A DNA stretch of 64,000 nt from the NCBI GenBank assembly GCA_963809485.1, contig CAWEJX010000001.1, forward strand, positions 384,001 through 448,000, given 5' to 3'. Positions 9,487-36,888 of the stretch are shown here, one piece after another. Position 1 is the stretch's first letter; each line of letters starts with the position of its first letter. The stretch comes from an uncultured Acidobacteriota bacterium (GTDB lineage Bacteria > Acidobacteriota > UBA6911). The position numbers and the translations under genes were made by a program. The notes under the pieces were generated by a model. The model was not told the origin of the DNA and made no database searches. It worked only from the letters and a program-made list of their open reading frames with translations.

Positions 9487-9986
9487 CTCCTGACGCCAAG
9501 GACAACATTGTTCAATATCTGAAGATCCAGCACATCCACCCTGCTGTCCTGGTTCAGGTCGTAACTTGCGGAGGAGACGTTTATGCCAAGGATTACGTTT
9601 GCAAGTGCCTGCAAATCGAGGGCATCGATGGATGAATCGCCATTGATGTTGCAGGTAACCGAGGAGGTCCCGATAGTCCGGGAAATTTCATTGGAAAAAT
9701 CACTTTCATTCCCATCGACATCGATGGCTGTGACCGCGAAATAATAGGTCCCGCCGCTCAGTTTCGGGACCAGGTATGTAGTCTGGTTTCCGATCAGAAT
9801 CGGAGCGCCGTAAGTCCCAGAGGTCGTGCCAACATAAACCTTGTAGCCTGCGATATTTGTAGAAACACTCGGATCCCACACTAGTGGAACATCGGCAGCC
9901 CAGGCTCCTGCGCAACTGCATATCACGACCAAGATGGCCAATAAAGTTATCGGGAAGGAACGGAAGCATAATCGCCAGGTCGACAT
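9477..9986 (-). CDS. secreted FN3-dockerin protein
   Basis: Signal peptide (AWA-AD); FN3 (WDPS..IAGYKVY..YYFAVTA.D..GNES); duplicated dockerin Ca-loops NINGDSSIDALD and DLNQDSRVDVLD. Confidence 0.82.
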   Translation of the reverse strand: MSTWRLCFRSFPITLLAILVVICSCAGAWAADVPLVWDPSVSTNIAGYKVYVGTTSGTYGAPILIGNQTTYLVPKLSGGTYYFAVTAIDVDGNESDFSNEISRTIGTSSVTCNINGDSSIDALDLQALANVILGINVSSASYDLNQDSRVDVLDLQILNNVVLGVRSCP

Positions 9987-10214
9987 AGTCTTTCTCCGGA
10001 TCTATGCCCTGAAGTATCGGCAACTTGTCGAAAAATCCGGTGACCTCCGTCACCAAAGCTTCCATTTGGCGGGGAGCCTGCAAAATCTGTGTTATTGTTG
10101 GAATGCGAATTATGCTAGGATGCGGCCTGGAACATGAGGCAGGCACAAATAGCCTGACAGGGAAACGACAGGTGAGGGATTTCCCTGGCAGGAATATTTT
10201 GCCTGCCTTTATTT

Positions 10215-11594
10215 TTAGGATCCCTTTTTCACCAGGACGGTCTTGATTGTCTCGAGGATAATAAGGGCGTCCAGAACCCAAGACATATTCTTGATGTAGA
10301 AAAGATCGTACTGCAGTTTTTCCACGGTGTGATCCAGCGTATTGGCATACCCGTAGTTGATTTGGGCCCATCCGGTGATTCCAGGCTTTACGACGTGGCG
10401 CAGCGGGTAAAAGGGTATTGATTCAGCAAGCTGTTGAACAAAGTGAGGACGTTCCGGCCTGGGACCAACGAGGCTCATATCTCCGCGCAAAACGTTGAAG
10501 AACTGCGGCAGTTCATCCAACCGCGTCCGGCGCATTATTTTGCCAAGGCGTGTGACTCGGCTATCCCCTTCCGCGGACCATACGGGACCGGTCTCTGCTT
10601 CGGCGTCTTCACGCATGGAACGAAATTTCACCAGCCAGAAGGTTTTCCCGTCCTGTCCTACGCGCTCCTGTCTATAGAATATCGGTCCTTTGGAATCCAG
10701 CTTGATCAGAACCATCAGGAGAAGAATAACGGGAGATAAAACCAGTAAAAGGACCGAGGATATTGCAACCGATAACACCCGCTTTTGAAAAAAAATGCGC
10801 TTGGAAACCGCAAATCCCTGGTTGAAGACCATCCAGCTGGGCTTCAGGTTTTCGATCGGAATTTTTCCAGCCACGCGTTCATAGAAGGCGGTTGCATCTT
10901 CGATGGCAATACCCCGGGTTTTGTATTCGAGAAGTTCTTTTATGGGCAGCTTCCCTCTGCGATCCTGCAATCCGACGACAATTCGATCCACCTTGTGATT
11001 CTCAACCAGTTTCGGCAGCTCTTCGTAGACTCCGACCACGCTTGGATTCACAATGGATTGCCCGACAAGCTTCGGATTGTCACCCACAAAGCCGACAACC
11101 CTTATGCCCAACTCGGGGTGCCTCAAAATCTCTCTTACGGCCTCGCGGGCGAGAGTGCCGGTTCCGAGCACCAGCAGGTTGGTGTGTGGAGCGCGACGGT
11201 CCCAATAGACGCGCAGGACAGAATGCCAGATCACAAGGAAGGCGCAGCTAAGCACCAGGCTGATTCCGAAAACTCCGCGGCCGATCATAACGCTCGGCGC
11301 TATGAAATAGAGAACACATAAGACCACGGTTGCCATAAACAGCGCCTGACAGAGGCGGAGGATATATTCCTTTGAAGAACGCGTTCTGCGGGACCCGTAT
11401 ATGTCGTTCAGGTGGAGCGAAAGCTGGAAAATTGCGGCGACCAATATTGCTTTTAGCAGCATGTGGTCGCCATTGCTTGAAGCCAGGGGGGATTCGCTCA
11501 GGCGGAGAAGATAGGCAGCCAAGACGCACCCTACCAAAAGCAGGGTTTCGACGAAGACCGCGCCGAATTTCCGCAACGCAAGATACCGCCACAT
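10215..11594 (-). CDS. PEP-CTERM system-associated polyprenyl glycosylphosphotransferase (TIGR03013-like priming sugar transferase)
   Basis: KFRSM, RTRLDELPQFFNVLRGDMSLVGPRPERP, KPGITGWAQ, KLQYDLFYIKN. Confidence 0.93.
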   Translation of the reverse strand: MWRYLALRKFGAVFVETLLLVGCVLAAYLLRLSESPLASSNGDHMLLKAILVAAIFQLSLHLNDIYGSRRTRSSKEYILRLCQALFMATVVLCVLYFIAPSVMIGRGVFGISLVLSCAFLVIWHSVLRVYWDRRAPHTNLLVLGTGTLAREAVREILRHPELGIRVVGFVGDNPKLVGQSIVNPSVVGVYEELPKLVENHKVDRIVVGLQDRRGKLPIKELLEYKTRGIAIEDATAFYERVAGKIPIENLKPSWMVFNQGFAVSKRIFFQKRVLSVAISSVLLLVLSPVILLLMVLIKLDSKGPIFYRQERVGQDGKTFWLVKFRSMREDAEAETGPVWSAEGDSRVTRLGKIMRRTRLDELPQFFNVLRGDMSLVGPRPERPHFVQQLAESIPFYPLRHVVKPGITGWAQINYGYANTLDHTVEKLQYDLFYIKNMSWVLDALIILETIKTVLVKKGS

Positions 11595-11859
11595 GAACCT
11601 GTGCCCTCACTTCCACTGCAGCTTCAGTCTAACAGTTCATCGACAAGATGAAGGGAATCATTGATTAAAAAATGATTCGCCCGGTTAATTTTCTGAACTA
11701 GCGAAAAACATTAGGTTTAAGAATCAAGGAATGTTCGCGATCCCTTGGCGCCTAAGGCTGGGTGAGGGCCCACTTATTATATGTTTCAATACGGCAGCCG
11801 TCAATACCAAATAAGAAGTTCATTGTTCACAGGCCACAGGAAGCTGTACCATATGCTTC

Positions 11860-12435
11860 GTGAATTTGGGATCAAGCCTGGCTCAATCCGTATATAACTA
11901 TCTCGACATCGGGAAATCACCGCGCCCTGCCGACTGCATTTACGTTCTCTCGGGCAATCAGGAACGAAATGCCTATGGCACCAAAATGTGGAGATACGGC
12001 TACTCGAGGCAGCTCATACTATGCGTCGGCAGGTCCGAGTTACCCAATTTTACGCAACTTAGGCTCGAAACAGACAGTGAGCCGGAACCCTTGTTGAAGC
12101 GGATGTCGGCTGCAGGAGATCATTTTCTGATTCGTAGAGATCGCCAGCAGACTTCCTATGCCCCGGCTCGAATGGGGCGATTGAAGATCCGTTCTGAGAC
12201 CCGCGCTTTGGCTGAGTACCTCAGCGATATACCCGTGCGATCTCTCCTCGTAGTCTCTTCACCCATCCACATGCGACGCGTGGCGCTATCCTTCCGGCGT
12301 GCCTTCCGAAAAGCCGGCGTGCATCTGGCTTTTGTAGCCGTGCCGGAAAATCCCTCGCTGTCTTCCCCTTCCATCCGGGCTGAAATCTGGATGGAGTTCG
12401 GGAAATATATTCTTTCTCGAGCCTTTTTACTCTGA
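11860..12435 (+). CDS. YdcF/DUF218-family protein
   Basis: ADCIYVLSG, ET.AL, LLVVSSPIHMRRV, C-terminal E.GKY. Confidence 0.7.
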   Translation: MNLGSSLAQSVYNYLDIGKSPRPADCIYVLSGNQERNAYGTKMWRYGYSRQLILCVGRSELPNFTQLRLETDSEPEPLLKRMSAAGDHFLIRRDRQQTSYAPARMGRLKIRSETRALAEYLSDIPVRSLLVVSSPIHMRRVALSFRRAFRKAGVHLAFVAVPENPSLSSPSIRAEIWMEFGKYILSRAFLL

Positions 12436-12614
12436 AACTCCGGGGCATCCGTTTGGATCGGACTCCTCTCAAAACCTGGAATCGGGGCTAATGCAGACCA
12501 CGGATTCATTCATTTTGCAATTTGATGCGCCAACCGTGCGTTAACTCGCTTCGGCTGCCCTGGTTTTCTGGGAACGCAACGGAAGCCGCCGCCGGTTTTC
12601 CGGATAACTCGGGC

Positions 12615-15600
12615 TTACAGTTTGGCCAATGTCGAACGGGCTTCATCGGCTCCGGAGAAGTTCGGGCTCAGGCGCAAAGCTTCCGAAAGTGAAGCCCTGG
12701 CGTTCGCTTTGTCGCCAGCTTTGAAATAACTCATCCCGAGATGATAGTGGAACACAGGATTTTTCGAATCCAGACGGACGCTCTCTTTGAGAGTCTGAAT
12801 CGCAGACTGGAAGGATCCTTGACGGTAATAAACCCAGCCAAGCGTATCCGTAACACTTGCCGAACCAGGCAGCTTTCTTTTGGCAATTCTTGCCAGACTT
12901 AATGCTTCGTTCAGGTCGCCGCCTGTTTCGGCCAGCAGCCAGGACAGATTATTCGCGGCCACCGTGAACTGCGGATCAATTTTTAAAGCTTCCCTGTAGC
13001 TCTCTATCGCCTTGGTTTTGTTCTTCTGCAATTCATAAATCGCGCCGAGTAATGCCCAGCTTTGAGAGGATTCCGGGTTGAGTTTGATAGCGTTATCCAA
13101 TTCCCTGATGGCCTGGTCTGCGGAATTTTGCATCCCGTATAGTTGCCCAAGGAGCTGATAGGTGCTCAGGTTGCTGCTATCGAGAGACAGCGCCTTGCGA
13201 TAGGACTGTTCGGCATTTGTATAATCGCTTCGGCTGGCATAAATCCGTCCCTGAATCTCGTAAAGCTTTGCATTCTTAGGAGATTTCTCAATCTGCTGGT
13301 TGACAAGCTGGAGAGCTTTTTCGGGATTCTTTCGAGCCAGGGCAATCTCCGCAAGGGCTGTCACCGGTTCCGCGTCACCCGGATTTGCTTTGACTGCCTC
13401 GTTCAGCAATTCCTCGGCTTTGGCAGTATTTCCCAAGCCATAATAGGCAAGCCCCAGGCGGTTGAGTGCCAAGGAATCCCCGGGCTTGACTTTCAGATAC
13501 GCTTCATAAGCATCTACCGCTCCTCTGTAATTTCGCTGGGCGTCGTAGGCGGCTCCCAGGCTCAGGCGTGCATCGGAAGAATTCGGATTTACTCGAAGGG
13601 CTTGTTGTGCGAAGCGAATAGCAGAAGCATAGTCACCGCTGTCATACTTGAGCCGGCTCAGTGCAATGTGGGCGATAGCCATCCGTGGATCCAATTCCAC
13701 AGCCCTGTTCCACGCCTCTTCGACCTTTGCAGATTTCGGATCCTTAAGGTATAGGGCCTGACCCAAGACAAAGTGGGCGGAGGCCAACTTGGGATTGATG
13801 CCTATGGCGGCCTGCGCCTCCTCTATGGCAGCATCGGCGCTTCCCTTCCCACGAAGCAGATCGCTCTTGATGATGTGCGCTTCGGTGTCATTTGGAGTCC
13901 TTTTCAGGATTTCATCAATGACCTTTATTCCTTTATCCCAGGATTTCTGGCGGAGGTACTGGATTGCCAGTTGTTTGTTGTAGGAAACATTGCCAGGTTC
14001 CCTTTGTGCCAGGCTTTGCAGAAGATCGGTGCTCTTTTCAGGCTTTCCCGTCCGCGAATAAAAGCCTGCCAGCGCGGAAGCAACCGCCGGATTCTTCGGA
14101 TCGGCCTGAACCGCTTTTTTATAGAGGTCCTCTGCGCGGACCAGGTCTTTCCGGGATTCAGAAATTTCAGCCTGCAGGCGCAGAATGGGCGCCTGGGCCG
14201 CACCGTTTGTACGTGCCATTTGCTGATTCAACCGTTGAACAGCCTTGTCCGGCTTACCCTGCCGCATATAAAGAGCCGTGATTCCCGAGAGGGCATCAAC
14301 AGAAGACGTATCAGTTTTAAGGGCAGCTTCAAATTGCGCTTCCGCCCGAGGCAAATCGCCGGCCGTCAAATATGCGGCCCCCAACCGCTCTTGTCCACGT
14401 GCATCCGCAGGATTACGCTGAACGTATGCTTCCAATTCCGGGATTGCAGCTCCTGTATTGCCCTTTTGCATATGCGCCGCGCCCAGGATCAAATGCGCTT
14501 CGGTACGGTTCGGGGCAATCGTCAATGCCTGCTGGGCATAACGAATCGCGTTGTCCGCATCTCCTGCCTCGAGCTTCAGCTGTGCCAGAGCCAACACAGG
14601 CTGTACGAAGCGGCCTGGATTCCGGGCGGCCTCGGTCCACTCCTTTTCCGCTGACTGCCGATCCCCGGACTGGAGATACGCCATTCCCAGAAAGTGCCGT
14701 GCCTGGACCGAATCGGGATCTGCATCTGCAGCGGACTTGAATTGCTTCAGCGCATCAGCATATTTGCTCTGCGCATACAGGATTCTGCCTTTAAGCACCA
14801 GCGCGTCCATGTTCTTGGGATCACTTTTGAGAATTACGTCGGCTATTTCTTCAGCTTTGCCGTAAGCCTTCTGATTAATATAGGAATCGGCTAGCCTTTC
14901 TTTCAGTTTTTCATCGTCAGGATTCTCTTTCACAAGCCCTTCAAGCACCTCGGCGCTCTTGTCGGCCTTTCCGATCAAACTGTAAAAATTGCTCAGCGCC
15001 TGGCGTGCGGCCGAGTTTTTCGGGTCGACGGAAACTGCCTTCATATAGGCTTGTTCAGCCTTAACGGGATCGTTCATCCTCAAATAGGCTTGCCCGAGGA
15101 CCTCGTATAGCTGAACCTGTTTCGGATTCTGCTCTATGGCCCGGTTGATGCGATCCAAAGCCTTTTGCGGATTCTTCTGAGACATATAGAGGCCTGCGAG
15201 CGAAGCAAGGGCATCGAAGTATTGCGGATTGGCTTTTAGAGCAGTCTCGAACTGGGCTTCAGCCTGCCTGGCAGCGCCCTGGGTCATGTAAACCATGCCA
15301 AGCCTGTGATGGCCTGCCGCGCTCTCAGGATTGCGCTGCACGAACTCCTCGAGCTCTCTTGCTGCTCCCTGGTAATCCTTGTTGTTCGCCAGGGCGATTC
15401 CCAGAACCAGCCTCGCCTCGCGGGCATTGGCATCGATTGCCAACGCCTGTTTGGCGAGTGATGCGGCGGTCTGTGAATCGCCGGCATTCAACCTCAGCTG
15501 AGCGAGTGCGATGTAAGCCTGTGTCAGGGTGGCGTCATAGCGTAAAGCCTGAATCAGCTCCTGCTCCGCCTTTTGCTGGTCCTCATTCAATAGCAGTGCG

Positions 15601-16727
15601 AAGCCCAAGAAATAGTGGGACTGGCCTCTCGTGGGCAGGGCTTTGACGGCCGCTTCCAGCTTTGTCACGGCGTCCGGAATCCTTTTCTGTGCCAGCGCAA
15701 TCCTGCCCTGGATCAGAAAAGCATCACCGTCCTTGGGATTGATCTTAAGGATCTTTTCGGCCAGCTGGCTCGCTTTGTCCAGTTCATTGCGGGAAATGTA
15801 GATTCCTGCCAAACGCTTGAGGGGCAACGGATCCGAGGCATTGTCGGAAGCAAGCTTCCTATAGGCTTCCATGGCGCGTTCTGTCTGTCCGGTCCCGGCC
15901 AAAAAATCCGCAAGCACGATTTTGTGGATGATTTCATTCGGATAGATATCACACAGCTTGGCGTAGACAGCTTCAGCCTCGGAAAGTCTCTTGTTTTGCA
16001 TCAAAAAATAGCCAAGCGCATTGTACGCGCTGCGGGATTTTGGATCCGCTGCAATGGCGCTTTGGTAGAGCTGTTCCGCTTCCTGGGGACGCTGCGAGAG
16101 GGAGTAGTAATTGGAAAGGGCAATCCTCGGCTCGACGGAATCGGGGGCGACCTCAATAGCATGCCTGTAAGCTTCCTCTGCCAGCTCCGGCTGACGCACG
16201 GTTTCCCCAGGATCGGACAGCTTGAGAAAGGCAGGCATAAAACGCGGCTCAGGCTGAAGACCTTGCCGCATCTCCCCTATGGATTCGTCGAGCTGGATCA
16301 TGCGCGCGTAAGTGTTGCCGAGGAGTATTTGCGCATGGACATTGCTGGAATCGCGCCTCAAAATCAATTCAGCCTTGCCCCGGGCATCGTCGAACTTCCT
16401 TTCCATGAGCAGGATGTTGGCAAGCCTTAGCTGGGCGGACAGATTGTTGGGATCGAGCTGAATGGTTTTCATCAGGGTCCCGTACGCATCGCTGAATTGC
16501 CCCACACAAAGTTGCCCGAGCGAAAGCTTATAGTGCGCTTCCGGGAGATTTGGAGCAGCCTTTACGGCGTTCCGAAATTCAATCATCGCCTCTTTGTACT
16601 TTCCCTGAGACAAGTACTTTTCCCCGTTGCTTATGTACTTTTGGGGATTCTTGGAACAACCGGCAATCGATAGCATAAAGACAGCCAGGACAAGCCAGCC
16701 GGCACGGAATCGAAATGAGCTAGGCAT
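12615..16727 (-). CDS. prsT: TPR lipoprotein of the PEP-CTERM system (PrsT-like), 1370 aa
   Basis: Lipobox IAGC, continuous TPRs, C-terminal AANNLSWLL..DTLGWVYY..YHLGM; downstream of exosortase/epsI. Confidence 0.88.
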   Translation of the reverse strand: MPSSFRFRAGWLVLAVFMLSIAGCSKNPQKYISNGEKYLSQGKYKEAMIEFRNAVKAAPNLPEAHYKLSLGQLCVGQFSDAYGTLMKTIQLDPNNLSAQLRLANILLMERKFDDARGKAELILRRDSSNVHAQILLGNTYARMIQLDESIGEMRQGLQPEPRFMPAFLKLSDPGETVRQPELAEEAYRHAIEVAPDSVEPRIALSNYYSLSQRPQEAEQLYQSAIAADPKSRSAYNALGYFLMQNKRLSEAEAVYAKLCDIYPNEIIHKIVLADFLAGTGQTERAMEAYRKLASDNASDPLPLKRLAGIYISRNELDKASQLAEKILKINPKDGDAFLIQGRIALAQKRIPDAVTKLEAAVKALPTRGQSHYFLGFALLLNEDQQKAEQELIQALRYDATLTQAYIALAQLRLNAGDSQTAASLAKQALAIDANAREARLVLGIALANNKDYQGAARELEEFVQRNPESAAGHHRLGMVYMTQGAARQAEAQFETALKANPQYFDALASLAGLYMSQKNPQKALDRINRAIEQNPKQVQLYEVLGQAYLRMNDPVKAEQAYMKAVSVDPKNSAARQALSNFYSLIGKADKSAEVLEGLVKENPDDEKLKERLADSYINQKAYGKAEEIADVILKSDPKNMDALVLKGRILYAQSKYADALKQFKSAADADPDSVQARHFLGMAYLQSGDRQSAEKEWTEAARNPGRFVQPVLALAQLKLEAGDADNAIRYAQQALTIAPNRTEAHLILGAAHMQKGNTGAAIPELEAYVQRNPADARGQERLGAAYLTAGDLPRAEAQFEAALKTDTSSVDALSGITALYMRQGKPDKAVQRLNQQMARTNGAAQAPILRLQAEISESRKDLVRAEDLYKKAVQADPKNPAVASALAGFYSRTGKPEKSTDLLQSLAQREPGNVSYNKQLAIQYLRQKSWDKGIKVIDEILKRTPNDTEAHIIKSDLLRGKGSADAAIEEAQAAIGINPKLASAHFVLGQALYLKDPKSAKVEEAWNRAVELDPRMAIAHIALSRLKYDSGDYASAIRFAQQALRVNPNSSDARLSLGAAYDAQRNYRGAVDAYEAYLKVKPGDSLALNRLGLAYYGLGNTAKAEELLNEAVKANPGDAEPVTALAEIALARKNPEKALQLVNQQIEKSPKNAKLYEIQGRIYASRSDYTNAEQSYRKALSLDSSNLSTYQLLGQLYGMQNSADQAIRELDNAIKLNPESSQSWALLGAIYELQKNKTKAIESYREALKIDPQFTVAANNLSWLLAETGGDLNEALSLARIAKRKLPGSASVTDTLGWVYYRQGSFQSAIQTLKESVRLDSKNPVFHYHLGMSYFKAGDKANARASLSEALRLSPNFSGADEARSTLAKL

Positions 16728-16852
16728 GAATTCCTCCGTAAAGAAGCGACCGAAATCTTTGCAAATTAATCTCTTACCGGATCCTTTTCAATACATCCCC
16801 TGGATAATTCATCAGGAGTAACCCACGCAACGGTCATGGAATACAAGCTTCG

Positions 16853-17515
16853 TTAATCCGGGATGTATCGGAATAGCATCGGGTATATCCGTTTCGCGAA
16901 ATCCACGGAGAGTCCTTCCGCCTTTTCCTCAGCAGCCGCCTCCAGTGACTCCGCCGGGCACATGATACGTACAAGCGCCGCATCCGTGCGCCCCAAACGC
17001 ATTTTATCCACCATTCCGTAGATCAAGCCCCAGTATTCGCTGGCGATGACTCGTCCGCAACCCTGATACCAGTAGAGCACAACTTGTTTGTCCGCCCCTT
17101 TAAGAATTACAATCCGGTTAACGCGTATGGATTTCCTGCCGTTGCCATCAGGGGGTGCGGTTACCGGTATATCAAGATAATCCTTCTCGACAGGGATCCA
17201 CCCGGAACCCGGAAGGCAGTTCAGGGGAGAATGAAAACCTCCCTTGAGGTGGTAGCCGATGTAAAGCCCCACGCTCTGACCGTCAGAATTGGTGTATTGG
17301 CGGGTTACATAGTCGCTGACCTGAAGCATATTGCGGGCATTATCACTGAGGTCCGCCAGAGGCTGTCCTTTCCACGAGCCAAGCTGCATCGGCAGGGTGG
17401 ATAGTGAATCGCGCTGCGGAATGGAAGCCGGTTCGAAGGTGCGTGCCATGATTCCCGCACCTGCGAGAAGGCAGATGCAAAAGACCAAAATCCGGATTGC
17501 CATGGATATCTTCAT
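16853..17515 (-). CDS. epsI: EpsI family protein
   Basis: LP..LG.W.G, LYIGY, HSPLNCLPGSGW, VLYWYQ..GR, RTDAALVRI. Confidence 0.92.
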   Translation of the reverse strand: MKISMAIRILVFCICLLAGAGIMARTFEPASIPQRDSLSTLPMQLGSWKGQPLADLSDNARNMLQVSDYVTRQYTNSDGQSVGLYIGYHLKGGFHSPLNCLPGSGWIPVEKDYLDIPVTAPPDGNGRKSIRVNRIVILKGADKQVVLYWYQGCGRVIASEYWGLIYGMVDKMRLGRTDAALVRIMCPAESLEAAAEEKAEGLSVDFAKRIYPMLFRYIPD

Positions 17516-17559
17516 CGCTCAAAGCTCCTCACGAAACCACCTGACCCCATAAAAGGTTG

Positions 17560-18408
17560 TTAAGCTGCAGCCGGTTCCTCAGCGGGATTATTCTTCGCAG
17601 GCGCCAGTCGAAGCAAGATTCGGTGCACAAGGAATAGCATGCAAAAGGCCACCACAAAGACCAGCCATCCTGAGAATGTATGGAAGAACCCCTCGGCCGC
17701 TTCCGGGCCGTAGTAATGCGCAGCCAGGCCAGTTCCGGAGACGCGGATCGCATTCGCCGCGATGGCAATCGGTACTGTGGACAGGGCGAGGATAACACGA
17801 AGCCAGGTTCTAGCTTCGATAAAATACCCATACACAATTCCCAGAGTCAGCAGCGATATCAACGACCGGATTCCGCTGCATGCCTCGGCAACTTCCAGAC
17901 TGGTATTGGCTAATTGGATCACGTTGCCTTCGCGCAGCACGGGGACCTGGCAGGCTGCCAGGGTCCATTCGCCGAAACGGGAAGACAGCAGCTGCAAGGG
18001 GAATGTCACCGGGTTGAAGATCACTGAAGGAATCGGAATCATGAGCAGCAGGAAAGCTATCGGGAAAGCCATCACTTTCAGGCGCGCCCAACCGCAAAGA
18101 AAGGCGATGCCACCGATCAGGCAGAAGAGCATCGCTATCCGGTTGACGAATGGATGCATATTCAGCACGGTTGCTAGGATTGCGGGCAGAAAAATGATCA
18201 TTCCTGTCCAGGAAGGTTTCCGGGGCGCTTGAGCAAACTTGCCTCGCCTCTCCCATGCAAAATAGAGGGCTAATGGCACGATCAGGAAGCCATGAGAGTA
18301 ATTGTCATCCCGCATCCAGTCACTGACCATTTCGACAATGACCTGTCGATAAAGCAAGGCAAAACATGCAAGAACAAGCAGCAGCGCTGCGGCGGTTTTT
18401 TTATTCAT
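17560..18408 (-). CDS. epsH: exosortase (EpsH/XrtA-type)
   Basis: YSHGFLIVP; catalytic Cys (VAEACSGIRSL), Arg (ANAIRV) and His (FFHTFSGW); multi-TM. Confidence 0.93.
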   Translation of the reverse strand: MNKKTAAALLLVLACFALLYRQVIVEMVSDWMRDDNYSHGFLIVPLALYFAWERRGKFAQAPRKPSWTGMIIFLPAILATVLNMHPFVNRIAMLFCLIGGIAFLCGWARLKVMAFPIAFLLLMIPIPSVIFNPVTFPLQLLSSRFGEWTLAACQVPVLREGNVIQLANTSLEVAEACSGIRSLISLLTLGIVYGYFIEARTWLRVILALSTVPIAIAANAIRVSGTGLAAHYYGPEAAEGFFHTFSGWLVFVVAFCMLFLVHRILLRLAPAKNNPAEEPAAA

Positions 18409-18436
18409 TTTAATCCCAAATATTTAGCCTGAATCT

Positions 18437-19840: not shown

Positions 19841-19861
19841 CCTTTGCCAGTCCCTGCTTCG

Positions 19862-21958: not shown

Positions 21959-22431
21959 CTGGTCATGTCCTGAAAAGATGAATTATACGCATTATACAAC
22001 AGCATAACTAAACGATTCAGTCTGCCCGGCCCGCAAAACGGAAACATGTCCTGAGCTCCGGTTTGTCATTTTACAGCAAATGCCAAAATCATGGATATCC
22101 CGGAGCTCACAGGCCAGAAAATCCTCATCCTACCTCATCGGCTTTTTCGCCATTTCATCAATCCTGATTGATCAGGAATCATGGGCCAAAGAAGATGAAA
22201 AATATCAGGCGCAGCAAATATCTGGAAAAATGGAGGAAAGAGTTATTAAATCAGATCCGATAAACATAAAGAAATGCTATATATAAACAGGCATGCACAA
22301 AGCCGCGGAATTACAGCCGCTCAGGGACGCCTCATTGGACGCAACTCGTTTAATTTTGCTTGTGCGGGATTATGTTTCAGGCACCTCCAAATGTTAGGAA
22401 TGGCCTCAAAGTGGAAATATTCTGAAATGCT

Positions 22432-25757: not shown

Positions 25758-25864
25758 GACCCATCCGATGGAGTTGCAGGGAATTCGAATTTGGGCCGCT
25801 AATAACTCTTATAACATCGGTTTCGCGTGCCACGCAATGATCCCCAAATGATAAGGGAGGCATC

Positions 25865-26899: not shown

Positions 26900-27061
26900 A
26901 CCGCACCCCGGCTTCACATACGCTTCAGAATGAGGCGAGGCAAAATCGGTCAATCGCCCTCACCCTCCCCGTTGGTCGCTTGAGTGATAATAATAATTAT
27001 GCACTCGGTGCGTCCCTTCAAAGCTTTGGCAAAGACCCAAACCATTCTTTGAATTCCTGAA

Positions 27062-28234: not shown

Positions 28235-28368
28235 CAGAAGGTCAAAGTAACCGCAGGGGCACGAAAGCTATCCCAGCCGGCCGGCCTGTAAAATCTTCCA
28301 AAAGAAACATATCCTGACTGCAAGCATGAGCATAATCAGGCTATCGATCAGGGAGCAGAAGAGATCAG

Positions 28369-29514: not shown

Positions 29515-29541
29515 CATCCTGCCGAAAACAGCGAGGTTTGA

Positions 29542-30597
29542 ATGACCAGAGCCAGACAATGGTTCCATGGCTTCCTCTACTACTCAGGCCTTTGGCTTGT
29601 TTTTCGAAAATGGAACCGCCGGCGTATCGCGATACTTATGTATCACGGCATCGTTGAGCGGGATCTCGGCACTTGGACCCAGGTGCCCGCAGAGGCATTC
29701 ACAAAGCAGATGCAATATATACATGATTCCTGCAAGCCAATCGCGCTGACCCATGCCGTCCGAGTGCTTCGACAGAAAGAGCCTGGACCCAGGTGCGGAG
29801 TCGCGGTGACTTTTGACGACGGCTTTCGAAGCAATGAAAAACTGGGCTATCCGGTTTTGAAATCCCTGGACATTCCCGCCACAATATTCATGACAACTTC
29901 ATTTGTTGAAAAATCCGGGAAATGGGGGGCGCTTCCGTGGAGTGATTTTATACGGCTGGTAATAAGACGGGCTCAGGCAACACACCTGGATGCAAGAGAA
30001 TTGGGACTAGGGATCATTGATTTGACCGACAGCAAGAGCACTTCTGATGCCACAAGGTCGATTCTCGGCCGGCTTAAGAGCCTGGACGCGGCGGAAAAAA
30101 ACCGGCTACTGGCTTTGATTGTTGATCGCGCGCAGCCATTGATGCCACTGGATCCCGAAGGGTACTATGATCCCCTCGACGCGGAAGCCCTGCGGCGGCT
30201 CATTTCAGGAGGGCTGATCGAATTCGGAGCGCATACTCTAAACCATGAAATTCTCACCCGCCTGCCAATAGAGGAAGCTTCAGAGGAAATGTGGGCATCG
30301 AAGGCCAAGACCCAGCAACTGACAGGGCAGCCGGTGCGTCACTTCGCCTATCCGAACGGGATGCCCTCCGATTACAATACCGACCTCCAGCGGATTGCAT
30401 CGAACCATTTCGATTCCGCTGCAACGACCCTTTCAGGGCTTAATTCCGTTGGCTGCAATCCATATGAACTCAAGCGCATTCCGATCGGAAACGACACCAA
30501 CATGATCGAATTCAAGCTTTGCCTTTCCGGCACTCTCGAATTTTTTGAAAGCTTTATCCAATGCCTCCGCCCGACCCTCCAGAACAGGATCCCATAG
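29542..30597 (+). CDS. polysaccharide deacetylase (CE4/NodB)
   Basis: ILMYHG, VTFDDG, FGAHTLNH, FAYPNG. Confidence 0.9.
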   Translation: MTRARQWFHGFLYYSGLWLVFRKWNRRRIAILMYHGIVERDLGTWTQVPAEAFTKQMQYIHDSCKPIALTHAVRVLRQKEPGPRCGVAVTFDDGFRSNEKLGYPVLKSLDIPATIFMTTSFVEKSGKWGALPWSDFIRLVIRRAQATHLDARELGLGIIDLTDSKSTSDATRSILGRLKSLDAAEKNRLLALIVDRAQPLMPLDPEGYYDPLDAEALRRLISGGLIEFGAHTLNHEILTRLPIEEASEEMWASKAKTQQLTGQPVRHFAYPNGMPSDYNTDLQRIASNHFDSAATTLSGLNSVGCNPYELKRIPIGNDTNMIEFKLCLSGTLEFFESFIQCLRPTLQNRIP

Positions 30598-30598
30598 C

Positions 30599-31735
30599 AT
30601 GGCCCGTGTAAAAACGGAAACCGCAGTCATTCCGATACGCACAAGTGAAGATTTTCTGCAACTGGAGGCCGGCTGGAACAGTCTTCTGGCCCGAATTCCC
30701 GATCACACGCCTTTCTCCACTCACGCCTGGCTGCAATCCTGGATCGAGGCATTCGGCGATCAGGTCGAGATTATTTCTTTAGTTGCGAAAAGAGGCGAGC
30801 ACACCGTCGGCATCGCGCCACTGTGCAAATGGGATTCGGGTGCCGTCACCTTTATTGGCTATCCCCAGAGTGATTATGCGGATTTTCTGATTGATCCATC
30901 CCTCCCTTCGGCGCTGGGAACGATCCTCGAGGCTTTCCGGGAGCTGCCAAACAACTGGAGTCGAATGATTTTGGATCAATTCCCTGAATCTTATAGTACT
31001 TGCGCGGCCCTGGCCGCCTGCATGAAACAAAGCGGGTATCCCTTCCGCGTGGAGAAGTCGGACCCATCACCCGCAATGGTTCTGGACAACATCGCGGCAG
31101 CCAGAAAGGTCTATTACAAGCAGCATATTGCGAATTATATCAATAAGCTCAAAAAGCAGGGAAATCTTGCATTTAATATATATAGGGACTCCGATATCGC
31201 GGTATCACGGCTTGACGACTTATTCGAGCAGCATATTGCGCGGTGGAAAAACACGGCGACTCCCAGTGCTTTTGCCAGCGAAAGAATACGAAGATTCTAT
31301 AGAATCTTTACGACGCGAATGCATCGGCTGGGCTGGATTCACTTTTGCAGCCTTACGCTCGATGAGAAATTCCTCGCATTTTTTCTATCCTTCGAATACC
31401 GGAAAAAGCTATATCTTTACAAGCCGTCCTTCAATCCAGATTATGCCAAAACCTCGCCAGGCCAGACCATACTGCGCTATCTATTTGATTATGCCGTGCA
31501 GGAATCCATTACCGAAATCGACTTTTGCCGTGGCGATGAAGCCTACAAACAGCGATTTTCCAACGTCACCCGCCAAAATTGCCGTCTCCGGGTTTATCGG
31601 AACCGGATCTCCGGAACCATGGCTGTATCCGCCCGACGCCTTTGGCATTCCCAACCGGTCGCTGCTTTTTCTAGGAGCCGTTTTGCAGTCAGAATCAAAG
31701 AGATACTGAACAGGTTCGTATATACCGTAAAATGA
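30599..31735 (+). CDS. GNAT acyltransferase, CelD/BcsL type
   Basis: TPFSTHAW, VGIAPL, SDYADF, SPG..L, IDFCRGDEAYK; ATG 30599 directly follows the upstream stop. Confidence 0.83.
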   Translation: MARVKTETAVIPIRTSEDFLQLEAGWNSLLARIPDHTPFSTHAWLQSWIEAFGDQVEIISLVAKRGEHTVGIAPLCKWDSGAVTFIGYPQSDYADFLIDPSLPSALGTILEAFRELPNNWSRMILDQFPESYSTCAALAACMKQSGYPFRVEKSDPSPAMVLDNIAAARKVYYKQHIANYINKLKKQGNLAFNIYRDSDIAVSRLDDLFEQHIARWKNTATPSAFASERIRRFYRIFTTRMHRLGWIHFCSLTLDEKFLAFFLSFEYRKKLYLYKPSFNPDYAKTSPGQTILRYLFDYAVQESITEIDFCRGDEAYKQRFSNVTRQNCRLRVYRNRISGTMAVSARRLWHSQPVAAFSRSRFAVRIKEILNRFVYTVK

Positions 31736-32916
31736 CAGATTGCATTGGCCGGCCAGATCCCTCGCCGAGGATCAACATCGCGTTTATTATTGATACTATA
31801 ATTAATCCTACGGGAGGAACTGAAAAACAGCTCCTGAGGCTCCTGCGCGACCTGGATCCCCAAAGGTTTCAGTCCTATCTTGTAACGCTCCGCTGTTCCG
31901 AATGGCTAAGCAAACAGACATTGGATATTCCGGTTATCACCCTCCAAAATCATGGAACGATAAAGCATGGCTTGGATTTCCTGAAATCGTTGTCCTTCGC
32001 AAAATTTTGCCGATCCGCGCAAATCGACATCGTTCAAACCTTCTTCACAGATTCAAACATTATAGGAACCATCGGCAGCCGCCTGTCAAACAAACGGCCC
32101 GCTGTTGTATCAAGCCGACGCAATATCGGCTATTGGCAAAGACCCCGCGATATAAGGATTCTTCGGTTGCTGCGGCACTGGACCAATTTCTACCTGGGCA
32201 ACTCCCAAGCCGCGATCCGGTCCGCCATCGAAATCGAGCGTATTGCGAAGGAAAAAACCCACGTTATATATAACGGCATCGATCTTGAGGAATTCCAGCG
32301 CATGGATCCGGCCCTGCGCCGGCTTCAACGGGAAAAATGGAATATATCAGAATCTCATATTCTTATAGGAGCGATTGCCAATTTGCGCACGGTAAAAAAT
32401 ATCAGCCTTCTGATTGATGCAGCCGCCCGCCTGATTCCCAAATTTCCTCAATTGCGTTTCGTCGTCGTAGGCGATGGTCCCGAGCGCAAGAATCTGGAGC
32501 AACAAATAGGCAACCTGGGGCTGAATAACCGGTTTCACCTGACTGGAGCGGCCAAAGATGTGATTGCATGGCTTGCGGCTTTTGACATTGCGGTGCTACC
32601 GTCTTCTTCGGAGAGCTTTTCAAATTCACTGCTCGAATATATGGCTGCGCGTTTGCCGATTGTGGCAAGTGATGTGGGCGGCAACAGCGAAGCCATCACT
32701 CACAATCTTGAGGGCTTTCTATGCCCGCCTGGAGACTCGGAAGGACTCGCCAAGGCCATAGGCAAGCTGTTGAATGATCCCGGATTAGCCCGAAGGTTTG
32801 CGGACTCAGGATACCGGAAGGCATGCCGACTATTCAGCTTTCCTATATGCATTGAAAACCATGAAAAGTTTTACAGAGCGGTAATCTCAGGTATTCCCTG
32901 CTCATCAGGCTCATAG
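31732..32916 (+). CDS. GT4 glycosyltransferase (TIGR03088-like)
   Basis: GGTEKQL, IANLRTVKN, ESFSNSLLEYMA, SDVGGNSE. Confidence 0.9.
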   Translation: MTDCIGRPDPSPRINIAFIIDTIINPTGGTEKQLLRLLRDLDPQRFQSYLVTLRCSEWLSKQTLDIPVITLQNHGTIKHGLDFLKSLSFAKFCRSAQIDIVQTFFTDSNIIGTIGSRLSNKRPAVVSSRRNIGYWQRPRDIRILRLLRHWTNFYLGNSQAAIRSAIEIERIAKEKTHVIYNGIDLEEFQRMDPALRRLQREKWNISESHILIGAIANLRTVKNISLLIDAAARLIPKFPQLRFVVVGDGPERKNLEQQIGNLGLNNRFHLTGAAKDVIAWLAAFDIAVLPSSSESFSNSLLEYMAARLPIVASDVGGNSEAITHNLEGFLCPPGDSEGLAKAIGKLLNDPGLARRFADSGYRKACRLFSFPICIENHEKFYRAVISGIPCSSGS

Positions 32917-32992
32917 TCTCAGATTCTAGTGTCTCTGTGTTTTGCGGAACTCAATAATTGGTTCTAACTGATCGCAGGCATAGGCTTCCAAA

Positions 32993-34354
32993 ATGAATAT
33001 CTCTTCCTCAGTGATCCGGAATGTAATTGCGCCCATGTGGGCTTGGCATGAGCGGTCTCCTTACCTGCGAATATGCACAAGCCTGAAGAAAAACGAGCAC
33101 ATAAGTGCGTCGGAGCGCACGAACACACAATGGATGAAACTGATTAGCTTGGTGCGCCATGCCTGGGATCATTGCCCCTTTTATCGAGATCGGATGAGAG
33201 AGGCTGGATTCCAACCCGAGGATTTGCGGAACTGGGATGATTTCCGGCGCTTCCCCATACTTGCCAAACAGGATATCGCGGACAATACTCCGGAGATGAT
33301 CTCACAGGTCTCGAACCGGGCCCGACTTATTCCGAGAAAGACATCAGGATCTACCGGAGTATCCCTTCATTTTTATGTGGATGAAGACGAGGTTCAGTTC
33401 AAACGCGGCGTGCAAATATACAGGGATAGCTGGACAGGATGGCGCATAGGCGACTGGAGCGCGCTTGTTTGGGGCAATCCAGAATATACACGGAGCTTTA
33501 GGGGACGGTTCAGGAACCGGTTCCTAAGCCGCTGCTTCTCGCTTGATACTCTGAAAATGGATAAAACCATGATGGGCAGCTTTGCCAACGAGATCTTTCG
33601 CCGAAAACCGAGCCTCCTTTTCGGTCATGCTCATTCACTCTACCTTCTGGCAAAATTTTGGGAGGACAGCGGGCTGCCCGAATTCCGGTTTCGCGGTATT
33701 ATAAGCACCGCAATGGTCCTTCACGAGCATGAGCGCCAGAAATGCGAGTCGGTTTTTAGATCCAGGATTTTTGATCGTTACGGATGCGAGGAAGTTAGCC
33801 TGATTGCCAGCGAATGCGAAGCGCATGAAGGGCTACATGTTAACACGGACTCTCTGATAGTGGAGGTGATCAAAGACGGCCAGTCAGCCCGAACGGGAGA
33901 AAGCGGCCGCGTCATTGTCACGGATCTCTGCAACCTTGCAATGCCATTCATACGATACGAAGTCGGCGATACCGCGATACCTTCCGACAGAGCCTGCTCT
34001 TGCGGCCGAAATTATCCACTCCTGGAAAGGATCACGGGACGGGTTGCCGATTATCTTCGAACACCTGAAGGAGACTGGATTTCCGGCATTTCCCTAACCG
34101 AAAATTTTGCCACCCTCATCCCCGGTCTGCACCAGATACAGATCGTTCAGGAGGAAATGGATTTTCTGCGACTCAGGATAGTCCGCGGGCGCCTTTTCGA
34201 CCACTCCAGTGTTGAACTGATAGAAAAGCTGGTACGCCAAAGGTTTGGTTCCCGCATGCGGTTTATCACGGAATTCGTTGATTCCATCCAGCCGGAAAGA
34301 TCGGGCAAATACCGCTTTTCCATTTACAGGGTAGGATCCTCCGGGCCTGCTTGA
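32993..34354 (+). CDS. phenylacetate-CoA ligase-like / CapK adenylate-forming enzyme
   Basis: TSGSTG, DRYGCEEV, MPFIRYEVGD, GRVAD, SGKYRF. Confidence 0.88.
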   Translation: MNISSSVIRNVIAPMWAWHERSPYLRICTSLKKNEHISASERTNTQWMKLISLVRHAWDHCPFYRDRMREAGFQPEDLRNWDDFRRFPILAKQDIADNTPEMISQVSNRARLIPRKTSGSTGVSLHFYVDEDEVQFKRGVQIYRDSWTGWRIGDWSALVWGNPEYTRSFRGRFRNRFLSRCFSLDTLKMDKTMMGSFANEIFRRKPSLLFGHAHSLYLLAKFWEDSGLPEFRFRGIISTAMVLHEHERQKCESVFRSRIFDRYGCEEVSLIASECEAHEGLHVNTDSLIVEVIKDGQSARTGESGRVIVTDLCNLAMPFIRYEVGDTAIPSDRACSCGRNYPLLERITGRVADYLRTPEGDWISGISLTENFATLIPGLHQIQIVQEEMDFLRLRIVRGRLFDHSSVELIEKLVRQRFGSRMRFITEFVDSIQPERSGKYRFSIYRVGSSGPA

Positions 34355-34644
34355 CGCCCGCTTGATGCGCCACAGGCGAAGCAGTCCACGATGAGAGCAT
34401 TTCAGTCAAAGCTGGCGGAATTATGCCTATCGAAAAATGGAAACCCGAAAATGCTTCGTGGCGACAATAAGGACCGCCCATCCCAATTTTGTGCCCAGCG
34501 TCACCAATCATAGGAGTCTTTTTAATTAAAATCCCTTTTATCGCCGATAGAATCAAAGGGCGCGAAGATTCGACATATTCCGGCGAAGGGAATGAATCTG
34601 GATTAGGGCCATTGCGCATCTTCTGGGTCGGAGGAAAACATACA

Positions 34645-36888
34645 GTGATAAGCCAACAAAAAAGCATTCGTACCGTCTTCAGCTTTTCCGGTAAAATATT
34701 TCTCGCTCTCATTCCGGTTATAGCTGCGTTCAGTCTGCTTCTTCCCCTGAATTTGTTTGCGCAGACCGTGGTGATCGACTCCAAGTGGCTTGATTCCCGT
34801 CAGCCTCCCTATAAACTGACGGGGGCTGGAAGTGTCTATCAACTTTCGACGGATGTTGCCACAGCGGGAACCGCCTTCCTTTTTTCGGACACCGGTATTG
34901 TTTTTGATTTGGGAGGGCACACCATCACCTATGCCAATTTGGATTTCACCGGCATTTCGAATCCTGGGTTTGAGCTGGCCGCCGCCGGAAACCCCACAGT
35001 GCCTGAGGGCTGGGATCTCAGGGGCGCCCCCCATGCGCAGCGCCAGCATTACCTGGAGAAGTTATTTTATGATGATTATTCACTTCGAATGGAAAATCCG
35101 GCGGGTGACGCCTTTTCTGAGGAGTTTGCAGTATCACCCGAAGTCTACCTTCCCGCAGCAGGCCGCTATGCGGCCGTTGCCCAGGTAAAAGGAAGCCCCT
35201 ATAAAGCGGTCAGGGTGACGCTGGCGATTGACGGGATTTCCGCAACTCCGGACAACCTTATAAGCAATATGCCTATGGTCTATCAGGCAACTGATATGAG
35301 CATTGGGATCATCGCGGAATTTGCTGTTAATTTTCCATGCAGTGTTCGCGTGCGGGTGATTTTGGGCACGACCGACCCTGCGGTATCAACATCCGCGGAT
35401 ATTGATGAAGTCGATGTGCGTCCCATAGGAATGAATGGTATTGCACTGGATGGATATAATAAGTCGCTTGCTGAAATCCGAAACGGCACGATCCGCGAAG
35501 GTCGGTCCCGGGCAATTTACTCTCACGCCCTCCATAGGACCGGCGCCCGCATGATCCATGATCTCACCATTGTAACCAATGGAATCAACAGTATGAATAT
35601 TTCGGAAATGTGGGCAGGCGGCATCAAAATCTACAACAATCATCTCGAGGCTTTGGGCAAACTTCCGCTGCACAGGCACTACCCATTCTCCATGATTGAT
35701 CTGTCACGAACAACTGGCGGGAATGAAATTTTCGGGAATACCCTGCTCCATGGGCCTCACGTCGGCATCAACCACGGCAACGCCTCCTCCAAAGGCGACA
35801 ATCCGAACCGAAGTCAGATACATGACAACAAGATTCAGACGCGCATCGTGGCAACGAATGGTTTCGCGATTACAACAGGAAGCAATGTGGATGTATTTTC
35901 CAATACAATCCAGCCATTCCAGGGCCACGGGATCGGTCTTGGCACCGGCAGCAATAACGTCAGGATCTATGATAATCTGATCGAGCCTCGAACCTGGCCA
36001 TGCAGCGAATACTCATCCTACAACTATCCGAACTCTTCGCATGGTATCCGAATAAAAACTTACGGCAGCGGGAATCTTCGAGATGTAGAGATTTATAACA
36101 ATCGAATTATCGGGCGAACCATCCCGCAGAGATCCAACTGCTATACGGAAATCTCGGGCATTACGAACTACATCACCGATTCCGACCCTTCCGCAGCTCC
36201 AAATCCGGAAAATATTTCCATACACGACAACAGCGTGCAGGTCTATACGGACAATTACCTGCAGCAACATGCCATTGCCTATAAGGTTGCGCCCTATGGT
36301 TCCGTTACACGCAATACCTTTGGCAGCAACCACATAATAATTGAAATGTCCGACAGTGACGCTGGCGCCGGAGTGAATACCAAACTCGTTTCAAATACCC
36401 TTGAGAAGCTAGCCAGTCCCAGTGGTTTTCACACCCTGCGTTTTGGTTACAACCGGCCTTATGGGAATACACTGCTCGACACTAGTCTTTTGGGTGGAGC
36501 GGACATCAAAGACGTATTCCACACGAGGAGCTATACTACCGCCACCGACTTGAATGTTTCGTGGTTCCTAACGGTCAATGTTCGGAATCCGACAGGCACA
36601 CCCATTAAGGGGGCTACTGTTTCGGCAAGAGATAAAAACGGCACATTGGTAGGGACACTCAGTACGGATGAAACAGGTAGGGCAACCCTCGAGTTGAAAC
36701 AATATACATATTATTACGATAAAGCTGGAAGGTACGATTTCTTTTCGCCGTATCAAATAATAGTGTCCGCTCCTGGATTTGCAGCTTCCAAACAAACGGT
36801 AACGGTGGATAGATCTGTTGAATTCCCTGTCACACTTGGAAGTGGAGTTTCAAGGCCGGTTTCTCCCACAAATTTGCGATTCCCCTGA
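34645..36888 (+). CDS. secreted right-handed beta-helix protein with C-terminal carboxypeptidase-regulatory-like domain and PxxPxNL tail
   Basis: GGAGG then GTG 34645; signal peptide (LFA-Q); FDLGGHTI, repeated I.NN.I strands; PIKGATVS..D.NG, TDETG.A. Confidence 0.72.
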   Translation: MISQQKSIRTVFSFSGKIFLALIPVIAAFSLLLPLNLFAQTVVIDSKWLDSRQPPYKLTGAGSVYQLSTDVATAGTAFLFSDTGIVFDLGGHTITYANLDFTGISNPGFELAAAGNPTVPEGWDLRGAPHAQRQHYLEKLFYDDYSLRMENPAGDAFSEEFAVSPEVYLPAAGRYAAVAQVKGSPYKAVRVTLAIDGISATPDNLISNMPMVYQATDMSIGIIAEFAVNFPCSVRVRVILGTTDPAVSTSADIDEVDVRPIGMNGIALDGYNKSLAEIRNGTIREGRSRAIYSHALHRTGARMIHDLTIVTNGINSMNISEMWAGGIKIYNNHLEALGKLPLHRHYPFSMIDLSRTTGGNEIFGNTLLHGPHVGINHGNASSKGDNPNRSQIHDNKIQTRIVATNGFAITTGSNVDVFSNTIQPFQGHGIGLGTGSNNVRIYDNLIEPRTWPCSEYSSYNYPNSSHGIRIKTYGSGNLRDVEIYNNRIIGRTIPQRSNCYTEISGITNYITDSDPSAAPNPENISIHDNSVQVYTDNYLQQHAIAYKVAPYGSVTRNTFGSNHIIIEMSDSDAGAGVNTKLVSNTLEKLASPSGFHTLRFGYNRPYGNTLLDTSLLGGADIKDVFHTRSYTTATDLNVSWFLTVNVRNPTGTPIKGATVSARDKNGTLVGTLSTDETGRATLELKQYTYYYDKAGRYDFFSPYQIIVSAPGFAASKQTVTVDRSVEFPVTLGSGVSRPVSPTNLRFP

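Follow-up and report, generated by a model that had tools for sequence, protein, structure and literature searches.

A 64,000-nucleotide stretch of the genome of an uncultured Acidobacteriota bacterium (contig CAWEJX010000001.1, positions 384,001 to 448,000; hereafter the window) encodes two secreted proteins that look like the two halves of one split fibronectin type III (FN3) domain. One, referred to here as the adaptor, carries an FN3 domain without its first strand, strand A, followed by a dockerin. The other, its putative cargo, is a beta-helix protein whose chain stops at what appears to be an FN3 strand A. The arrangement thus has the two components of donor-strand complementation: an acceptor domain that lacks an edge strand, and a separate polypeptide that carries the sequence of the missing one. 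From their sequences we infer that tails of this kind bind strand-A-less FN3 modules and complete them in trans; this is the best single reading of the evidence, and we put its probability at about 0.45.

The adaptor is a small protein in which a signal peptide, the FN3 domain and the dockerin follow one another closely:

9477..9986, reverse strand: adaptor gene, 169 residues (open reading frame (ORF) translation)
9897-9986, reverse strand: adaptor signal peptide, ending in AGAWA, after which the chain continues ADVPLVWDPS (translation)
9663-9896, reverse strand: FN3 domain without strand A, residues 31-108 (Pfam, AlphaFold2)
9501-9647, reverse strand: type I dockerin, residues 114-162 (Pfam Dockerin_1, PF00404, 33.2 bits against a cut-off of 22.9)

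The original prediction, which set the FN3 domain at 9672-9896 (residues 31-105), held that it has no strand A of its own, and this is borne out by translation, profile and model alike. No PxxPxNL-type stretch stands before or after the domain in the adaptor translation. Pfam aligns residues 33-102 with positions 16-82 of the 84 positions of the fn3 profile, leaving the strand-A positions unmatched, and the domain misses the curated PF00041 threshold (21.1 bits against a cut-off of 25) because its N-terminal strand is missing. The AlphaFold2 model, built on a 104-sequence alignment (overall pLDDT 87), has six FN3 strands, at residues 30-35, 44-52, 62-64, 69-75, 78-88 and 100-104, all with pLDDT above 90 and with strand A absent; the dockerin part is modelled with helices at 121-131 and 151-161. 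The best Foldseek matches to the adaptor FN3 are all FN3 domains, with target-normalised TM-scores of 0.5-0.69. On the modelled fold, the domain is an FN3 body minus one strand, a complete FN3 sandwich having seven (A, B, C, C', E, F and G).

This build is shared by a family. A search at E up to 1e-3 gives 275 relatives, of which nearly all are 160-175 residues long; those inspected share the adaptor build, and most have a PF00041 match. In the N-termini that were inspected, the signal peptide is followed by A/G-D-V-x-L-x-W-D with no strand-A motif between, and W36 is invariant throughout the 104-sequence alignment. The family also has conserved cysteines. Nearly all of its signal peptides (relatives P0018-P0136) carry one or two Cys in the hydrophobic core, in an LLC[SG]C-like setting some 8-10 residues ahead of the AxA cleavage site, which is lipobox-like but non-canonical, and the dockerin part of the adaptor has two invariant Cys, C111 and C167.

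The putative cargo lies in the same window on the opposite strand:

34645..36888, forward strand: putative cargo gene, a 747-residue secreted right-handed beta-helix protein with a carbohydrate-binding module (CBM)-like insert and a C-terminal Ig-like (CarboxypepD_reg) domain (ORF, ribosome-binding site, Pfam, AlphaFold2)
36835..36885, forward strand: flexible linker and strand-A-like tail, residues 731-747 (sequence, AlphaFold2)
36856-36885, forward strand: motif PVSPTNLRFP, with the stop codon at 36886-36888 (translation)

The cargo frame is open from 34489; the probable start is a GTG at 34645, behind GGAGGA at 34630, and a signal peptide is encoded. The protein ends ...GSGVSRPVSPTNLRFP-stop. 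Its AlphaFold2 model (pLDDT 87, pTM 0.84) consists of the beta-helix, a CBM-like sandwich and the C-terminal Ig-like domain, with the final 17 residues left as coil at a pLDDT of about 50 in this monomer. Foldseek matches the cargo to GH87 and GH110 glycosidases, capsule lyases and phage depolymerases; the E-values run from 1e-7 to 1e-4, but whole-chain TM-scores are low, at 0.16-0.29. The Pfam Beta_helix match, at 17.3 bits, lies under its cut-off of 25.9. The cargo is a glycanase-like, putative polysaccharide-acting protein.

Other explanations for such an ending were considered and set aside. A truncated FN3 gene was rejected, as hmmsearch --max over all six frames of 36701-37500 finds no FN3 remnant (best E 0.54). 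A PEP-CTERM sorting signal, which would consist of a PEP motif, a transmembrane helix and a basic cluster at the C-terminus, was rejected in spite of the exosortase gene epsH in the locus, the cargo ending five residues past the tail Pro and having no transmembrane helix. An outer-membrane beta-signal does not describe the tail either; the lone outer-membrane-protein-like regex match, on contig 20 (...ALRFQF), belongs to another class. No sorting-signal model in NCBIfam or Pfam gives a match. A 124-residue ORF opposite the tail and the adjoining intergenic region (36753-37127, reverse strand) is probably no gene.

The tail is conserved in position as well as in pattern. The cargo has 15 non-self homologues at 47-76% identity, and in 8 of the 15 the chain finishes with P-x-x-[LI]-x-[VIFL]-x-stop at an identical alignment position, the Pro being invariant; P-x-x-[LI]-x-hydrophobic-x-stop is kept in 9/9 aligned tail-bearing members. 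Between the body of the protein and the tail lies a linker that varies from 0 to about 25 residues among the tail-bearing homologues, and the tail stop codons were confirmed in the DNA of eight loci. Tailed homologues come from metagenome-assembled genomes of Acidobacteriota, Deltaproteobacteria, Saccharibacteria and Moraniibacteriota (Moranbacteria-type). The remaining seven relatives end otherwise: in T9SS (type IX secretion)/FlgD-like domains, in a Cys-rich segment with a membrane anchor, in a helical repeat, or plainly. The homologue P0010 (L039:9854-12184) ends in a Cys-flanked tandem helical repeat (...ELFAFIDLWKQ...LKELIEAIGFWKRGCP) that has no Pfam entry in the precomputed list, and this repeat may be another docking module. 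The conservation exceeds chance: even in its loose form the tail motif terminates only 98 of the 21,632 genome ORFs of at least 100 residues, most of those ORFs being spurious.

Could the tail be the very strand that the adaptor lacks? With the 78-residue FN3 as query, a full-library search (E up to 0.001) returned 22,497 proteins, and the best 150 of these supplied 1168 internal FN3 copies for a survey of strand A in cis. The pattern P..[LIV].x occurs within 25 residues upstream in 734 of the 1168. The cis strand-A consensus is PPaaPtGLtAtaGdG, with strand B immediately after it. Tails map to about -11 to -5 of this consensus and end at -5 to -3. Position +1 is the first of the truncated FN3, which places the split in the A-B turn. 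By this alignment the tail is the strand A of this FN3 subfamily, stopping ahead of the A-B turn. Together with the empty six-frame search, the consensus match upholds the earlier claim that the cargo ends in an orphan FN3-type strand A with no domain after it.

The tails differ from most cis strands in one respect: they have F, I, V or L at the hydrophobic position, where cis strands mostly have Ala. Bulky cis strands do exist. A comparison of 346 cis copies, 33 with a bulky residue (from 26 proteins) and 313 without, found the bulky copies enriched in the states typical of strand-A-less FN3 bodies: Y21 in 14/33 against 28/313, Y57 in 13/33 against 22/313, and Y or F at position 72 in 4/33 against 3/313, relatedness being uncorrected.

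The tail is also found on other proteins. Contig 8 of this genome encodes a pectate lyase of polysaccharide lyase family 1 (PL1) with TSP3 repeats that ends AAPTGLRIL-stop (...GTDPKPVADSLAAPTGLRIL-stop). Regex and position-specific scoring matrix searches of all ORFs of at least 150 residues found only these two clear tails in the genome, the next-ranked candidates looking spurious; the matrix was trained on the same tails that it ranks first. Among the 120 PL1 matches listed, seven more homologues have the tail, ending 1-5 residues past the hydrophobic position (the regex flagged 4 of the 120, the others being recognised by eye), and other PL1 homologues have dockerin, SLH, CBM-like or Pro/Thr-rich ends in its place. 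The pectate lyases of genomes G034 and G009 have no tail. In both enzyme families, then, the C-terminal slot of the tail is occupied in other members by dockerin, SLH, CBM or T9SS-like domains. Further tails end a 432-residue protein in genome G001 and a 605-residue protein of locus L040, unrelated to either enzyme. By its sequence the tail is a module, present on at least four unrelated cargo families. The 432-residue protein (L064:4393-5691, reverse strand) also has a match to Saf-Nte_pilin, a donor-strand pilin family, at E 4e-4; this is below the cut-off and probably due to chance.

Free shuffling of C-terminal modules in both enzyme families, and the fact that FN3 linkers are common recombination points, would also suit another history, in which a C-terminal FN3 was lost by truncation or module shuffling and only its first strand stayed behind, as a selectively neutral tail. 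We regard this as very improbable. Homologues at 47-76% identity, in several phyla, retain the pattern and the place of the stop even though the residues themselves vary, no FN3 remnant lies downstream of the tail, and the tail recurs on four unrelated protein families.

If the tail has a partner, the gene neighbourhoods suggest where it may be sought. This genome has five genes in which a signal peptide leads straight into an FN3 without strand A, and each of its two tail genes lies near one of them. In the window, the beta-helix gene is 24.7 kb from the adaptor gene within the same exosortase/exopolysaccharide (EPS) locus, so that the two halves share a locus, as originally stated. On contig 8 the tailed pectate lyase gene is 10.4 kb from a strand-A-less FN3 gene, in a glycosyltransferase/ABC locus. 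Under uniform random placement the chance of both proximities is about 0.04 x 0.017, a significance that is overestimated because surface-glycan genes cluster. The contig 8 locus (545015-558316; L034, L001) runs from a strand-A-less multi-FN3 protein through an FN3/Laminin_G_3 protein, GT2 glycosyltransferases and an ABC exporter to the tailed pectate lyase, with a LuxR-type response regulator upstream.

Closer pairings occur in other genomes, and altogether tail genes lie near strand-A-less FN3 genes in seven loci, including two directly adjacent pairs and one trio. In G037 an FN3-FN3-FN3 gene adjoins a tailed pectate lyase gene with 32 bp between them, and in G001 the tail gene is 1.4 kb from a strand-A-less FN3 gene. 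In the saccharibacterial locus L042 a protein made up of a signal peptide, a strand-A-less FN3 and two PG_binding_1 domains is encoded directly upstream of the tailed homologue; its FN3 is the sole FN3 match in a 0.8-Mb genome, and FN3s of this type were found in 5 of 151 genomes sampled from the order. On other FN3-bearing contigs of this order, in five regions, no tails were found. The trio is in L040, on a contig of candidate phyla radiation (CPR) type, where two consecutive tail genes (1170-2987 and 2991-3446, both forward), ending ...VPQGLNVF and ...NPTGLNVL, precede the gene for a 130-residue FN3 protein. This is a less clean case: the FN3 protein may have a membrane anchor at its N-terminus, and a short segment ahead of strand B might be a cis strand. 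The 605-residue tail protein of this locus has no Pfam match. In G047 the gene for a tailed beta-helix homologue is separated by 18 kb from one in which an FN3 and an FN3-scaffold protein form a single chain, a covalent link that the dockerin-cohesin pair of the window thus replaces. A deltaproteobacterial genome with a tailed homologue has two strand-A-less FN3 proteins, on other contigs. Records with non-tail homologues contained an N-terminal strand-A-less FN3 in 0/3 cases, one of these genomes having only internal FN3s with cis strands. The FN3 partners are attached by various means: a dockerin, two PG_binding_1 domains or fused scaffolds. Taken across lineages, these cases raise the prospect of a cross-phylum pairing of strand-A tag and FN3 socket, in which a peptide of about seven residues would let bacteria from Acidobacteriota to CPR hang enzymes on cohesin scaffolds, peptidoglycan or giant surface proteins. 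We hold this tentatively, at somewhat short of an even chance.

The same surveys also contain objections to complementation in trans. Strand-A-less FN3 domains right behind a signal peptide are very widespread, and include the first domain of giant tandem-FN3 proteins without tails. This genome has five such genes against two clear tails, and across the order an FN3 match was found in 40/51 genomes, compared with 2/51 for the beta-helix protein and 2/51 for the tailed pectate lyase. Twenty further FN3 neighbourhoods (10 kb on either side, 682 ORFs of at least 150 residues) contained a tail gene in just one case, and there is no convincing tail within 50 kb on either side of the adaptor operon in G037, G017, G001 and G002 (484 ORFs of at least 200 residues). 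Conversely, two tail loci lack a strand-A-less FN3 in the DNA examined (L038, and L044, whose genome has two elsewhere). Related genomes are non-independent observations, and co-localisation may be mere shared membership of surface-glycan loci. The adaptor family is clearly independent of this cargo, so that the socket, if real, serves other ligands or works empty. Co-occurrence, which the original prediction had offered as a check, holds in one direction: tails are nearly always near a strand-A-less FN3, and most such FN3 genes have no tail nearby.

The domain itself provides further objections. N-terminal copies (23) and cis-complete copies (404) differ at several positions, for example by an aromatic residue rather than Ala at G-strand position 72, and this strand-G aromatic might cap the open side and so compensate for the missing strand. 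AlphaFold2 folds the FN3 confidently by itself; a domain that folds alone was among the outcomes that the original prediction had named as contrary to it, although a fold obtained in silico is weak evidence on this point.

These observations give substance to the main rival reading, which we hold to be somewhat less likely than complementation in trans, namely that the two features are independent. The FN3 would then be a self-sufficient six-stranded module, for instance for glycan or matrix binding, and the tail another kind of C-terminal signal, read by a protease, a sorting system or some other receptor, the two meeting because both belong to surface-polysaccharide loci. The excess of strand-A-less FN3s over tails, their own conserved substitutions, the confident monomer model and the low score of the predicted complex described below all suit it. 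Glycosyltransferase-rich loci surround each of the two tail genes found in this genome, and FN3 proteins may be common in such loci anyway. What it does not readily accommodate is the form and distribution of the tail, which reproduces the strand-A consensus of the FN3 subfamily and ends just ahead of the A-B turn. Adjacent gene pairs recur in three unrelated lineages, one of them the 0.8-Mb genome with its single FN3 match. The tail occurs in diderm as well as monoderm-type (CPR) lineages, contrary to an outer-membrane sorting signal, and the NCBIfam and Pfam sorting-signal models do not match it. A polymer of FN3 proteins was rejected as a further possibility: none of 27 strand-A-less representatives has a convincing C-terminal tail of its own, and among 150 proteins scanned by regex there were four matches, none convincing.

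Structure prediction of the complex, the first check that the original prediction had proposed, separates the pair from its controls and stays in the weak zone. FN3 residues 31-108 and the last 32 cargo residues (716-747), each with its alignment, scored 0.47, 0.47 and 0.46, against 0.01 for the best of three controls; the controls, two with the tail chain swapped and one with the FN3 swapped, gave 0.00-0.01. At least 95% of contacts agreed between runs, and the partner pLDDT was at least 56. The verdict was "weak support", with no interface reported and hence no placement of the tail on the FN3. Of 80 solved complexes 58 reach the mark applied, as do 2 of 110 mismatched pairs; with scores of 0.60 or under, only 7 of the 80 do so, together with both of those mismatches. 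A result in this zone is usually wrong, save where the pairing was already likely on other grounds.

The missing interface and the bulkier hydrophobic residue of the tail (F, I, V or L in place of the usual cis Ala) leave room for the tail to bind elsewhere by beta-augmentation, to the C-terminal domain of a scaffold, to a second copy of the enzyme or to its own Ig-like domain, its likeness to FN3 being a matter of ancestry. Beta-helix depolymerases are often oligomeric, which would fit. We think it unlikely, since the tail is unpacked in the monomer model and since TSP3 repeats precede the tail of the pectate lyase, which offers it no Ig-like domain for packing. Bulky cis strands exist too, paired with FN3 bodies of the strand-A-less type, and the chain-swap controls gave 0.00-0.01.

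For complementation in trans to anchor the cargo in this bacterium, the adaptor must itself be held by something. The rest of the locus provides candidates:

17560-18408, reverse strand: exosortase EpsH (Pfam Exosortase_EpsH, 264 bits)
16853-17515, reverse strand: DUF3485 gene (Pfam DUF3485, 146 bits)
10215..11594, reverse strand: Bac_transf initiating sugar transferase, directly upstream of the adaptor gene (Pfam)
7351..9486, reverse strand: scaffold 1, 711 residues, with signal peptide, cohesin, FN3 and a large beta-rich C-terminal region (Pfam Cohesin 32.2 bits against a cut-off of 24.1; fn3)
4837..7275, reverse strand: scaffold 2, 812 residues, with signal peptide, cohesin, two FN3-like domains and a DUF5719-like C-terminal region (Pfam Cohesin 38.8 bits against a cut-off of 24.1; fn3 47.3; DUF5719 26.2)

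Gene content identifies the region as an exosortase-type EPS locus because EpsH and DUF3485 are both present; a histidine kinase, a sigma-54 regulator, a 1370-residue TPR protein, Wzy and a flippase are also encoded there (Pfam). Both scaffold proteins pass the Cohesin (PF00963) cut-off, and the scaffold 1 and adaptor genes overlap by 10 nt. The whole genome has only one dockerin and two cohesins, all adjacent in the adaptor operon, and in 15 of 18 related loci the orthologue of the adaptor gene has a cohesin ORF as its neighbour. Neither the adaptor nor the scaffolds nor the cargo receives a family name from NCBIfam. The Bac_transf neighbour also precedes the fused FN3-scaffold gene of G047. 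A fusion of a similar kind is present in this genome, where a 558-residue protein on contig 9 (123898-125574, forward; L035:5899-7572) joins a strand-A-less FN3 straight to a DUF5719-like C-terminal region like those of both cohesin scaffolds; the genome thus has both the fused form and the form split between dockerin and cohesin. Immediately upstream of the beta-helix gene, the gene at 32993-34354 (forward) has no Pfam match at E 0.01, and its product has matches below the cut-offs to PaaK/F390-synthetase-like AMP-dependent ligases in NCBIfam (best E 5e-42). It keeps its neighbour position in G047, and for this reason its product may act in polysaccharide decoration.

Two further links of the original prediction have comparative backing. 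Tethering through dockerin and cohesin agrees with a conserved operon, the evidence being synteny. Completion of the adaptor FN3 by the tail in trans agrees with the conserved, modular tail, its consensus match, the co-localisation and the anchoring modules, this adaptor in particular being a candidate receptor. The specific chain from beta-helix tail through dockerin adaptor to cohesin scaffold is graded somewhat less likely than the general reading of complementation in trans.

How might such a tether work? The tail of the exported enzyme would lie along the free edge of strand B of the FN3, and its Leu and bulky hydrophobic residue would fill the open side of the sandwich. The enzyme would then be held non-covalently to whatever the FN3 protein attaches to. 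In the window, the chain would run from the tail of the beta-helix enzyme to the adaptor FN3, and through the dockerin to the cohesin of either scaffold; elsewhere, the FN3 would be fused directly to scaffold or peptidoglycan-binding domains. The likely purpose would be to hold an EPS-trimming or depolymerising enzyme on a cell-surface or matrix scaffold of the exosortase locus. If true, this would be a third modular route to the assembly of extracellular enzyme complexes, beside cohesin-dockerin pairs and SLH or peptidoglycan anchors, and its tag would be the smallest natural one known. It would give a function to the common and unexplained FN3 that starts at strand B after a signal peptide, so that such domains in public data could be seen as docking sockets, and would explain how EPS-modifying enzymes of exosortase loci are retained at the surface. 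Protein engineering would gain a natural, non-covalent split-FN3 pair.

Several known systems resemble parts of this scheme. In cellulosomes, small dockerin-bearing adaptor scaffoldins likewise plug into cohesin scaffolds that display glycan-active enzymes. There the dockerin is on the enzyme itself, whereas here the enzyme would bear a seven-residue strand that the adaptor converts into a dockerin, and the setting is no cellulosome but an exosortase EPS locus of an acidobacterium-like genome. Donor-strand complementation in chaperone-usher pili likewise involves an Ig-like domain without an edge strand, which another polypeptide supplies. What a pilin lacks is its C-terminal G strand; the next pilin supplies one from an extension at its N-terminus, in a process that depends on a chaperone and an usher and builds a homopolymer. 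In the present case an FN3 lacks its N-terminal A strand, which unrelated enzymes would supply from their C-terminal tails to give a 1:1 tether. Neither a chaperone or usher nor a maturation protease is among the Pfam matches of 13 window proteins or of the adjacent gene pairs, in a search that was not exhaustive. SpyTag/SpyCatcher is a split Ig-like domain used as a tag, joined by a covalent isopeptide bond. N-terminal strand swapping in an engineered FN3 scaffold, as described in its structure entry (PDB 4m6a), provides a precedent for strand A in trans. These cases are engineered or crystallographic; here the split would be natural and non-covalent, between the products of separate genes.

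In the type V pili of Bacteroidota (FimA/Mfa1), removal of an N-terminal segment likewise exposes a groove that is filled by the C-terminal strand of another molecule. These pilins, whose strand exchange is also the subject of PMC13655056, are made from lipoprotein precursors, cut by gingipain, and form head-to-tail polymers. In the present case only signal-peptide cleavage is implied, and no polymer is expected because the FN3 proteins themselves have no tails. The donor-strand exchange fibres of TasA (PMC9674648) share strand donation between secreted biofilm-matrix proteins and differ in being homopolymeric and of another fold. Titles and the beginnings of abstracts, subscription journals being uncovered, yielded no paper on a natural split FN3 of this kind, and with the same coverage of journals none was found on dockerin and cohesin in an exopolysaccharide context in Acidobacteria. 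Set beside the known strand-exchange systems, the pairing proposed here would be new in being heterotypic, non-polymerising, FN3-based and anchoring.

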